A DNA stretch of 64,000 bases from Ostreococcus lucimarinus (Eukaryota): assembly GCA_000092065.1 (NCBI GenBank), contig CP000600.1; one strand, 5' to 3'. The notes under the pieces are model-generated. The model was not told the DNA's origin, ran no database searches, and saw only the letters and a program-made list of their open reading frames with translations. The number at the start of each line of letters is the position of its first letter. Position 1 is the first letter of the stretch. Position numbers and translations under genes: made by a program. Positions 50,510 to 51,896 of this stretch are shown one piece after another.

Positions 50510-51896
50510 ATGCCCGCGACGGCGACGCGCGTCGCGGACGCGCGCGCACGGGCGAACGCCACCGTCGCGCGCCGCGTCCGCGCGCCGCGTGCGGCGCGCG
50601 GGGCGACGCGCGCGCGCGCGACGCGCGAACTGCTCGACCTCGCCGCGCTCGTCGACGTCGTCCCGAGCGACCTCGCGCTGAGCGACGCCGAGGAGGCGCT
50701 GGGGAAGTGCGCGTTCGCGGCGCTGAGCGCGTCGAGCGCGGCGTTCGCGGGCAAGGTGCGGACGCGCGCGACGACGACGCGCGAGCGACGAGGGACGGGA
50801 CGCGCGACGACGGCGCGCGAGGGTTATGCGCGCGAGACGACGAGACGACGAGACGACGACGCGCGATGAAGACGCGAGCGACGCGCGACGACGACGGGAA
50901 AAGACGATAAAAAATACGCGAGACTGACGGGAACGAACGCGCGGCGATGGGCGCGCGCAGGCGATTTTTACGGATGAGAAACGCGCGGGACGGGGCGAAC
51001 AGATTGGAATGTACGTCGGGAACGCGTCGCTGTTCGGACTGCTCGCGGCGCGGTGGATCGAGAGCGGACACTTTCCGCTGAGTAATATGTACGAGTCGCT
51101 GTTGTTTCTGGCGTGGGGGATCACGGCGGTGCACCTGGTGGTGACGGAGCGCGACGGGTTCTCGGAGAGCGCGATTCCGGGGGCGCTCGCGGGACCGACG
51201 GCGGCGCTCACGGTGGCCGGGGCGACGTTAGCGCTGCCGGCGGAGCTGCAGCGCGCCACCGCGCTCGTGCCGGCGTTGAAGAGTAATTGGTTGATGATGC
51301 ACGTGAGCGTGATGATGCTGAGTTACGCCACGTTACTCGTCGGTTCGTTGTCGTGCGTGTCGTATTTAGTCGTCGACGCGTCTCAGGATTGGGCCGCGGC
51401 GAAGGGGGCGCTGGAGAAGCTCGATAAGATGGTGTCCAACGACGGCGAGCGCGTGAGAAATAGGCCAAAAGTGAGCGTCGCCGCCGACGGCGAAACCGTG
51501 GCGGTGGAGACGATGAACGCGAGCGAGGATTACGGCGGCGAGCTCGCCATCGAGGCGACGCGCGACGGCGAACGCATCCTCACCGAGATGGACAACTTGG
51601 CCTACCGTTGCTTGGGCGCCGGTTTCACTTTGCTCACCGCGGGTTTGGTTTCCGGCGCGGTGTGGGCCAACGAAGCCTGGGGTTCGTACTGGTCCTGGGA
51701 TCCGAAGGAGACGTGGGCGCTCATCACCTGGCTCGTGTACGCCACGTATTTGCACTCGCGTCTCGTCGCCGGTTGGAGTAAAAAGGACTCGTGCGCCGTC
51801 GGTGCCGCGGGCTTTTTGGTCGTTTGGGTGTGCTACGTCGGCGTCAACCTCTGGGGCGTCGGCTTACACTCGTACGGTTGGTTCGCCAACAAGTAA
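50510..51896 (+). CDS. ccsA: cytochrome c-type biogenesis protein CcsA (System II heme-handling WWD protein), nuclear-encoded, 2 exons
   Basis: Exon 2 (50961..51896) is collinear with Chlamydomonas plastid CcsA: [55 protein letters not shown], and the WWD heme-binding box GAVWANEAWGSYWSWDPKETWALITWLVYATYLHSR, with conserved His residues. Exon 1 (50510..50755) encodes an Ala/Arg/Thr-rich presequence (MPATATRVADARARANATVARR...). The 205-nt intron has GTGCGG ... GAGACTGACG ... CGCGCAG. The frame is open and continuous across the junction (..AFAGK|AIFTDEKRAGRGEQIGMYVGN..). Confidence 0.75.

Follow-up and report, generated by a model that had tools for sequence, protein, structure and literature searches.

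CcsA is a very hydrophobic, polytopic protein whose gene has been retained by almost all photosynthetic plastids. The question of why organelles keep certain genes is touched by lineages in which ccsA has been relocated to the nucleus, and the locus studied here raises the question of whether Ostreococcus lucimarinus carries a functional nuclear ccsA and, if so, how that gene obtained its presequence. The DNA analysed is a stretch of 64,000 nucleotides of contig CP000600.1 (assembly GCA_000092065.1), referred to below as the window. Its sequence makes it very probable that the locus is a functional nuclear ccsA gene of two exons, which would encode a 393-aa precursor made of an N-terminal extension rich in Ala, Arg and Thr followed by a full-length CcsA of the cyanobacterial/plastid type. 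The features of the gene and its neighbours are summarized in Table 1.

The preliminary description of this locus identified the product as a cyanobacterial/plastid-type CcsA from its WWD box and conserved histidines, and profile and structure comparisons agree. The product matches PF01578 with an E value of 9.4e-61 (205.6 bits for a cutoff of 29.9, residues 122–385) and the equivalog TIGR03144 with 312.6 bits (cutoff 187.6, residues 99–388). It is 47% identical across 336 aa to a cyanobacterial CcsB that aligns end to end (CcsB residues 7–334). In its match to H. hepaticus CcsBA (structure 7s9y, E 1.6e-24), the WWD box and three histidines are aligned. WGSYWSWDPKETWALITW and the other motif quoted in support of the first identification are both found in the translation. 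Members of the family are recognized by a tryptophan-rich WWD box placed between two p-side histidines (PMC6299221, PMC5526843); in CcsBA, W828 and W837 are residues of the WWD domain, and the role of the P-His1 histidine has been set out in the same work (PMC6299221). In the O. lucimarinus product the WWD box lies between the P-His1 and P-His2 equivalents, and the TM-His2 equivalent is present. Hydropathy peaks delimit about eight hydrophobic segments, the N-terminal helix included, which is the pattern of a full-length polytopic protein. Compared with plastid or cyanobacterial copies, TM1 and TM5 have a lower hydrophobicity, a property of the nuclear copies that would suit a natural test of whether hydrophobicity keeps genes in organelles. 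Mamiellales and a liverwort plastid CcsA seemed to have a 'DKR' motif in common behind TM1, but this was not sustained across 137 sequences.

Table 1. Features of the O. lucimarinus ccsA locus and its neighbours (positions in the window)
Feature	Position	Strand	Remarks
Divergent neighbour, ESCRT-II (Vps25-like) gene	49900..50415	-	PF05871, E 6.9e-10; also beside O. tauri ccsA
Exon 1, 5' part	50510..50674	+	ATG and N-terminal extension of ~54-55 codons, putative chloroplast transit peptide
Exon 1, 3' part	50675..50755	+	Native CcsA N-terminus and first transmembrane helix, residues ~56-82, DLALSDAEEALGKCAFAALSASSAAFAGK
Phase-0 spliceosomal intron (GT-AG), 205 nt	50756..50960	+	GTGCGG 5' end; branch-site-like ACTGAC at 50923-50928; CAG 3' end (50958-50960)
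Exon 2	50961..51896	+	Residues 83-393 and TAA, CcsA core; PF01578 and TIGR03144 matches
Met97, start codon in the public model XP_001422474.1 (truncated, 295 aa)	51009..51011	+	ORF 51009-51896 identical to the public protein
His196, P-His1 equivalent, lumen-side heme ligand	51300..51302	+	Aligned to H761 of 7s9y, by positions counted off the printed alignment
WWD heme-handling box WANEAWGSYWSWDPKETW, residues 317-334	51663..51716	+	Aligned to W828-W845 of CcsBA
His347 in YATYLHSRL, TM-His2 equivalent, membrane heme site ligand	51753..51755	+	Aligned to H858 of 7s9y
His385, P-His2 equivalent	51867..51869	+	Aligned to H897 of 7s9y
Downstream neighbour, NIPA-type Mg transporter gene	52135..53088	+	PF05653; also in O. 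tauri and in four O. lucimarinus-type contigs

A free-living cyanobacterium, and not the alga's own plastid, could have donated the gene to the nucleus by horizontal transfer, an origin that we consider unlikely. Such a donor would agree with the database matches, as the best named ones after Mamiellophyceae and Chloropicon are cyanobacterial CcsB proteins (46–52% identity) and the best-scoring named matches include no plastid-encoded green-algal or plant CcsA, and also with our neighbour-joining (NJ) tree, in which the cluster of nuclear copies adjoins the cyanobacterial one. However, the bootstrap value of this grouping is 21%, and 12% with Dayhoff-6 recoding, and no supported node joins the nuclear cluster to either the plastid or the cyanobacterial group. 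In addition, AT-rich plastid CcsA sequences differ strongly in composition from GC-rich nuclear and cyanobacterial ones, so that the latter two are expected to be drawn together artificially, and it is more economical to assume that an essential plastid gene was relocated. The nuclear copies themselves form a cluster in the NJ analysis (bootstrap 86–94%, and 36–44% after recoding), apart from plastid-encoded CcsA and composed of Mamiellales, Chloropicophyceae, Euglena and several marine eukaryotes. If it is not a compositional artefact, this cluster would point to one very old nuclear ccsA, whose source could be an early transfer or else acquisition from a cyanobacterium. That one such copy existed beside the plastid gene and took its place repeatedly in separate lineages, instead of many independent transfers having taken place, seems to us improbable.

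The 393-aa product results from translation of exon 1 (50510–50755, 82 codons from the ATG) joined to exon 2 (50961–51896, 311 codons and TAA). The two exons are read in different frames and frame 1 meets a stop at 50867–50869; therefore, they can be joined only if nucleotides 50756–50960 are removed. An in-frame junction through a 205-nt intron with GTGCG, ACTGAC and YAG signals had been proposed from the first inspection of the locus, and it is confirmed both by this translation and by O. tauri: the K82/A83 junction is matched exactly in the annotated O. tauri protein (a 388-aa model, which we also re-spliced). The same junction is present in a spliced Mamiellophyceae MMETSP transcript (P0012), which provides evidence of expression in a relative of O. 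lucimarinus. The strict signature AG/GTGCG..ACTGAC..YAG is found eight times in the window, in the ccsA intron and at seven other sites, compared with 0.54 times in shuffled sequences. Exon 1 is 246 nt long with an open frame in all five haplotypes compared, in which the splice sites are also kept. Indels among these haplotypes are of 1 nt and confined to the intron, whose length varies from 204 to 205 nt, a variation that would break the frame if the intron were coding. Long ORFs run over the gene on the minus strand (for example 50274–51134 and 50378–51259) and were disregarded, since they probably result from the high GC content.

The public model of this gene, the deposited RefSeq/GenBank entry, has a single exon that starts at Met97 (51009) and encodes 295 aa, with the ORF at 50510–50755 left outside the gene. 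No spliced O. lucimarinus transcript over the junction was found when the N-terminal 143 aa were used as a query, all matches being genomic ORFs in which exon 1 is read on into the intron, and this speaks for the single-exon model. We nevertheless find it very unlikely to be correct. A 295-aa product would have neither TM1 nor a targeting sequence, residues 83–96 (AIFTDEKRAGRGEQIG), which precede Met97, are conserved in Mamiellales, and the native N-terminus of CcsA in cyanobacteria and plastids is aligned with residues 55–82. The constancy of exon 1 among the haplotypes and the equivalent exon in the O. tauri model and in the spliced MMETSP transcript are also at odds with a start at Met97.

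Exon 1 had initially been regarded as an acquired presequence exon. In such a scheme of exon acquisition or shuffling, a pre-existing or foreign exon that encodes only a transit peptide would have been joined to the transferred ccsA through the intron, and the presequence does lie in a different exon from most of the protein. However, the exon boundary is not at the border between presequence and mature protein. In a multiple alignment the first ~54 aa have no counterpart in cyanobacterial or plastid CcsA and the native N-terminus is at about residue 55; residue 61 is aligned to residue 7 of cyanobacterial CcsB, and residues ~56–82 are aligned to residues 1–28 of cyanobacterial CcsB and of plastid CcsA from a liverwort and a brown alga. 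Homology thus starts at residue ~55–61, and exon 1 therefore consists of a presequence of ~54 aa and of about 28 native CcsA codons that include TM1. The earlier impression that the region before the first conserved helix is shortened or replaced relative to Chlamydomonas CcsA is not supported: residues 61–120 align with the cyanobacterial protein without a gap. The presequence is basic, with an abundance of Ala, Arg, Thr and Val and with 11 K/R and 2 D/E in its first 40 residues. It diverges rapidly, with indels, among Ostreococcus genotypes, whereas the segment that follows is conserved (P0408), and its dN/dS relative to O. tauri is 0.57.

The intron lies ~28 codons within the ccsA-derived ORF, after TM1, and its distribution also bears on the origin of the presequence. 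An intron at the identical position is present in four Mamiellales loci, among them those of O. tauri (256 nt), of M. pusilla CCMP1545 (where it is of the GC-AG type) and of a Micromonas-like contig. It is absent from the Bathycoccus-like orthologue, in which presequence and CcsA form one uninterrupted ORF, and in Chloropicon the presequence and TM1 are contiguous, the sole intron being in the WWD box (WGSYW/SWDPKETW). Because the intron sits inside the ORF, and because it is missing from the Bathycoccus-like gene and from the corresponding site in Chloropicon, we favour a presequence formed by extension of the ORF at its 5' end; the sequences fit a history in which the intron would have been gained later, and they leave exon acquisition highly improbable. 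Hence, from the functional transfer with an N-terminal extension that was first put forward, we retain the extension, the intron and the intact ORF under constraint, but not the acquisition of an exon.

The location of the gene in nuclear DNA with nuclear-like codon usage, already recognized in the preliminary description, is borne out by its composition and by synteny. The ccsA region has 68% GC and a GC3 of 0.86, and its codon fractions correlate with those of the neighbouring genes (r = 0.93). The gene order L33/ESCRT-II/CcsA/NIPA/coiled-coil is common to the window and to a 558-kb scaffold of O. tauri, and four O. lucimarinus-type contigs are 99.2–99.7% identical to the window. The dN/dS ratio relative to O. 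tauri is 0.10 for exon 2 and 0.18 overall, which indicates purifying selection. The idea that the locus is plastid DNA inserted into the nucleus without function (NUPT), or else an organellar fragment that was mis-assembled, is refuted by the synteny with O. tauri, by the four independent assemblies, by the eukaryotic flanking genes, nuclear codon usage and GC content, and by the presence of a spliceosomal intron in an intact ORF under purifying selection. Matches of 309 aa and 70% identity on contigs of 48–88 kb were considered as possible plastid genomes; the 87.8-kb contig that was checked is eukaryotic nuclear DNA, with zf-MYND and CS-domain genes as neighbours, on which a prokaryote-style gene caller had predicted exon 2 only.

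The literature that we searched held no statement on the presence or absence of ccsA in Mamiellales cpDNA, nor a discussion of the nuclear copy. A review describes CcsA as encoded by plastid genomes in all but a few cases, and the 75 genes common to all 12 prasinophyte cpDNAs do not include ccsA (Lemieux et al., 2014); both statements are indirect evidence. We infer that the product of the nuclear gene is targeted to the plastid and active, that the gene was transferred from the plastid, and that the plastid copy is absent. The history would then be as follows. A ccsA gene of cyanobacterial/plastid ancestry would have moved to the nucleus before the split between Ostreococcus and Micromonas, and its ORF would have been lengthened at the 5' end, giving rise to the presequence. 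The phase-0 intron would have been inserted just after TM1 and kept in Ostreococcus and Micromonas. The extension would route CcsA made in the cytosol into the chloroplast, where it would become embedded in the thylakoid membrane and, together with nuclear-encoded CCS1, would carry heme into the lumen for attachment to the CXXCH motifs of cytochromes f and c6.

The novelty implied by the preliminary description does not hold. Residues 97–393 (51009–51896) are 100% identical to XP_001422474.1, annotated as 'plastid-localized, cytochrome c assembly protein [Ostreococcus lucimarinus CCE9901]', and nuclear orthologues are on record for O. tauri, Micromonas (M. pusilla) and Chloropicon primus; the nuclear ccsA of O. 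lucimarinus is therefore already known, and only the exon 1 missing from the public model is new. The public entry (XP_001422474.1, ABP00791.1, UniRef A4SAQ5) represents the same gene as a 295-aa protein, which has been in GenBank since publication of the genome and whose exact sequence is indexed in 876 blocks of a public collection. It starts at an internal Met and lacks exon 1, with the presequence and TM1, as well as the 14 N-terminal codons of exon 2. As the relocation is already present in the public annotation of O. lucimarinus, O. tauri, Micromonas and Chloropicon, its finding brings no new biology by itself. This work yields a corrected O. lucimarinus gene model, in place of a public protein without transit peptide and first transmembrane helix. 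It also yields a dated intron, common to Ostreococcus and Micromonas, missing in the Bathycoccus-like gene and different in Chloropicon, and evidence that points to the presequence being a 5' extension of the ORF rather than a separate exon.

Among the closest known relatives is the O. tauri 'cytochrome C assembly protein-domain-containing protein' (P0001, 388 aa), an orthologue of 86% identity with the same flanking genes, two exons and the same K/A junction, which differs by its intron (256 nt instead of 205 nt) and by a diverged presequence (dN/dS about 0.57). The Micromonas (MICPUCDRAFT_22607 and others), Bathycoccus-like and Chloropicon primus ('cytochrome c biogenesis protein CcsA') genes are likewise nuclear, with eukaryotic neighbours and long N-terminal extensions, and those of Micromonas have an intron at the Ostreococcus site, of the GC-AG type in M. 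pusilla. Plastid CcsA of Chlamydomonas and land plants and cyanobacterial proteins of the CcsB/ResC type belong to the same family and have the same architecture, with the WWD box and the P-His1, TM-His2 and P-His2 histidines; in contrast with them, the O. lucimarinus copy is nuclear, has a presequence of ~54 aa and an intron, and uses GC-rich codons. H. hepaticus CcsBA (7s9y, 7s9z) aligns through its CcsA half, including the WWD domain and the three histidines, but it is a 942-aa protein in which CcsB and CcsA are naturally fused, whereas O. lucimarinus CcsA is a separate protein that would need a separate CCS1. N-terminally extended, nuclear-type copies of ccsA are also found in Euglena gracilis (as a transcript) and in Symbiodinium (in a record named 'ccsA, partial'); these secondary algae belong to other lineages, and their presequences are much longer, the N-terminal extension reaching 190 aa in Euglena.

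The reading frame at 51009–51896 (295 amino acids) is letter for letter the public O. lucimarinus protein XP_001422474.1 (ABP00791.1; UniRef A4SAQ5), and over 6.9 kb the window is 99.2–99.7% identical to four contigs that encode this protein, two of them 545–560 kb long. The gene is already known, the genome annotators having recognized it as nuclear and its product as plastid-localized. The public model has one exon, starting at Met97; we favor instead the initially proposed two-exon model with a spliced product of 393 amino acids (see the table of features). The two exons are in differing frames and the frame of exon 1 meets a stop at 50867–50869, so that they can be joined only by excising 50756–50960. 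This intron does carry the local intron signals, as first proposed: the strict signature AG/GTGCG..ACTGAC..YAG occurs eight times on the two strands of the window, versus 0.54 times in shuffled sequence. The O. tauri model has a counterpart of exon 1, and re-splicing O. tauri DNA at AAG/GTGCGT ... CGCGCAG/GCT (a 256-nt intron) gives exactly its 388-amino-acid protein. A complete Mamiellophyceae MMETSP transcript (...VYCYK/AFFTDDKRAGK) is spliced at the same point, a phase-0 intron lies at exactly this site in Micromonas pusilla CCMP1545 and in one Micromonas-like contig, and two gene calls from metagenomic DNA (P0021 and P0022) run through an intron there. Exon 1 is 246 nt long and open in all five O. 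lucimarinus-type haplotypes, with constant splice sites, while single-base indels make the intron 204 or 205 nt; these would be frameshifts if the segment were coding, which favors the longer model. In genomic ORFs of further Ostreococcus genotypes, conservation extends to K82 and gives way there to divergence with indels, and residues 83–96, before Met97, are conserved in the Mamiellales in a multiple alignment. A search with the N-terminal part found no O. lucimarinus transcript spanning the junction, only genomic ORFs entering the intron. The useful yield is twofold: the public gene model needs a corrected 5' end, and the history of the intron becomes clear. The seven other sites with the strict signature (0.54 expected in total) may mark introns in further genes of the window.

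Features of the ccsA region, candidate introns of the window and aligned residues of the 393-residue CcsA
Feature	Position	Strand	Remarks
ccsA exon 1	50510–50755	+	82 codons, starts with ATG
ccsA intron	50756–50960	+	5' GTGCGG; ACTGAC at 50923–50928; 3' CAG
ccsA exon 2	50961–51896	+	311 codons, then TAA
Ribosomal protein L33 gene, bacterial type	49482–49856	+	PF00471; two genes upstream of ccsA
ESCRT-II subunit ORF	49900–50415	-	directly upstream of ccsA
NIPA-type transporter gene			downstream of ccsA
Long coiled-coil protein gene			downstream of ccsA; weak GRIP-domain match (E 0.0047, under the Pfam cutoff)
Candidate introns	3322–3604, 47704–47892, 59762–59847, 62352–62627	+	AG/GTGCG..ACTGAC..YAG
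Candidate introns	5467–5561, 43008–43183, 59238–59343	-	AG/GTGCG..ACTGAC..YAG
His196	residue 196		aligned to H761 of 7s9y
WWD box WANEAWGSYWSWDPKETW	residues 317–334		aligned to W828–W845 of 7s9y
His347	residue 347		aligned to H858 of 7s9y
His385	residue 385		aligned to H897 of 7s9y

In BLASTP, residue 61 of CcsA pairs with residue 7 of cyanobacterial CcsB and the alignment is gap-free to residue 120; in the multiple alignment, the cyanobacterial, liverwort-plastid and brown-alga-plastid proteins start at residue ~55 (DLALSD...). Exon 1 therefore encodes an extension of about 54 residues followed by the native CcsA N-terminus and first helix. The part before the first conserved helix, described initially as apparently shortened or replaced, is neither, and the idea that the presequence was acquired as a separate exon is not supported, because the intron lies between positions 28 and 29 of the cyanobacterial homologue and marks no presequence–exon boundary. 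The extension is basic and Ala/Arg/Thr-rich (11 K/R versus 2 D/E in the first 40 residues), and comparison with another Ostreococcus genotype (P0408) shows that it evolves fast, with indels, next to an identical mature N-terminus. The behavior of residues 1 to ~54 fits that of a putative transit peptide. Relative to O. tauri, dN/dS rises from 0.10 in exon 2 to 0.50 in the mature portion of exon 1 and 0.57 in the presequence. The data support a functional nuclear ccsA of plastid type, with presequence and intron, but not the mechanism proposed for presequence gain.

The location of ccsA in nuclear DNA sharing its neighbors' codon bias is confirmed by synteny, the order and orientation of neighbors being the same in O. 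tauri and in four O. lucimarinus-type contigs, and by composition: GC3 is 0.86 (neighbors, 0.69–0.88) and codon fractions correlate with r = 0.93. The GC content of the region is 68%. Conserved gene order, eukaryotic neighbors and nuclear-like GC3 and codon usage exclude both a plastid fragment placed here by mis-assembly and a dead insert of plastid DNA. Many plants and algae carry rpl33 in the plastid genome, and the L33 gene may be of organellar derivation, the second such nuclear gene in this small neighborhood. ESCRT-II lies head to head with ccsA (49900–50510, -/+). If the ESCRT-II ATG is at 50484, as in an O. lucimarinus-type haplotype (L008), the two starts are only ~25 nt apart (O. 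tauri, 22 nt), in which case promoters and 5' UTRs must overlap or sit within the adjoining gene. Between the window and O. lucimarinus-type contigs the ESCRT-II frame (- strand) differs by 2-nt and 1-nt indels at 50111 and 50364–50368, so that the called ORF is 171 amino acids, 194 amino acids, or two pieces of 61 and 115; these indels could be an assembly error, an unrecognized small intron or real polymorphism.

The presumed Bathycoccus orthologue, assigned from composition, has a single uninterrupted ccsA ORF of 446 codons. Chloropicon primus lacks an intron at the Mamiellales site, its sole ccsA intron (114 nt; 5063–5176 of L003/L004) interrupting the WWD box at WGSYW/SWDPKETW; the length of this intron is divisible by three, yet it contains an in-frame stop. 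The M. pusilla CCMP1545 intron (3877–4042 of L005) starts with GCGCGT and is GC-AG rather than GT-AG, and the public M. pusilla model (323 amino acids, 'partial') omits exon 1 and starts within the intron. In the established taxonomy, Bathycoccus groups with Ostreococcus, with Micromonas outside both. On the simplest reading, the common ancestor of Ostreococcus and Micromonas already had the intron, and the Bathycoccus-like lineage lost it. Whichever history holds, ccsA introns would have entered a nuclear reading frame that was already complete.

The identification as a plastid-type CcsA with WWD box and histidine ligands stands. Residues 122–385 match Pfam PF01578 (E 9.4e-61), the protein reaches 312.6 bits with the NCBIfam equivalog for c-type cytochrome biogenesis protein CcsB (TIGR03144; cutoff 187.6), and identity with a cyanobacterial CcsB is 47% across 336 residues. 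A search of solved structures found Helicobacter hepaticus CcsBA, a natural CcsB–CcsA fusion (7s9y, E 1.6e-24), and the tabulated residue equivalences were counted along the printed alignment. The heme-handling family is defined by a WWD domain with a p-side histidine on either side; in CcsBA there is, in addition, a pair of transmembrane histidines, one of them from the CcsA half, and W828 and W837 are listed as WWD residues (PMC6299221; PMC5526843). At the level of sequence, O. lucimarinus CcsA has all features of this family.

Across the alignment, peak hydrophobicity of nuclear-encoded, cyanobacterial and plastid-type proteins is 1.24, 1.84 and 1.78 in TM1 (residues 58–90) and 1.74, 2.37 and 2.25 in TM5 (188–226). 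The lower values fit an adaptation to import, a reading confounded by GC-driven Ala/Gly enrichment. The best 150 matches from 1.84 billion protein representatives were classed by N-terminal extension and amino-acid composition, a long extension with GC-type composition marking nuclear candidates. Many of these 150 are sequences of 400–640 amino acids with AT-type composition and no extension, which resemble CcsA encoded in green-algal plastids and carrying insertions in loops. In neighbor joining, the Mamiellales group has 96% bootstrap; its union with Chloropicon and three nuclear-type sequences (P0208, P0105 and P0210) has 94%, or 44% after Dayhoff-6 recoding, and 86% and 36%, respectively, once the Euglena clade joins. 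Bootstrap support for joining the nuclear cluster with cyanobacteria is 21%, falling to 12% with recoding. At family level, an origin from cyanobacterial/plastid System II is secure, and transfer from the alga's own plastid is the economical reading.

From published gene inventories, ccsA is not known to be present in the Ostreococcus plastid genome. Nuclear or nuclear-type relatives of the gene are on record in O. tauri (on a 558-kb scaffold), in M. pusilla CCMP1545 (MICPUCDRAFT_22607) and in C. primus, where a protein named CcsA is encoded on a 1.88-Mb chromosome; a Symbiodinium record reads 'ccsA, partial'. In Euglena gracilis a nuclear-type ccsA is known as a transcript, in agreement with a report of ccsA in the Euglena transcriptome and not in euglenid plastid genomes (PMC3308993). 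Among prasinophytes, ccsA is not one of the 75 genes shared by every one of the 12 plastid genomes compared, which include the 86–88-gene genomes of Ostreococcus and Micromonas (Lemieux et al., 2014), and a review on how plastid cytochromes c mature describes CcsA as plastid-encoded "with a few exceptions" (PMC5526843).
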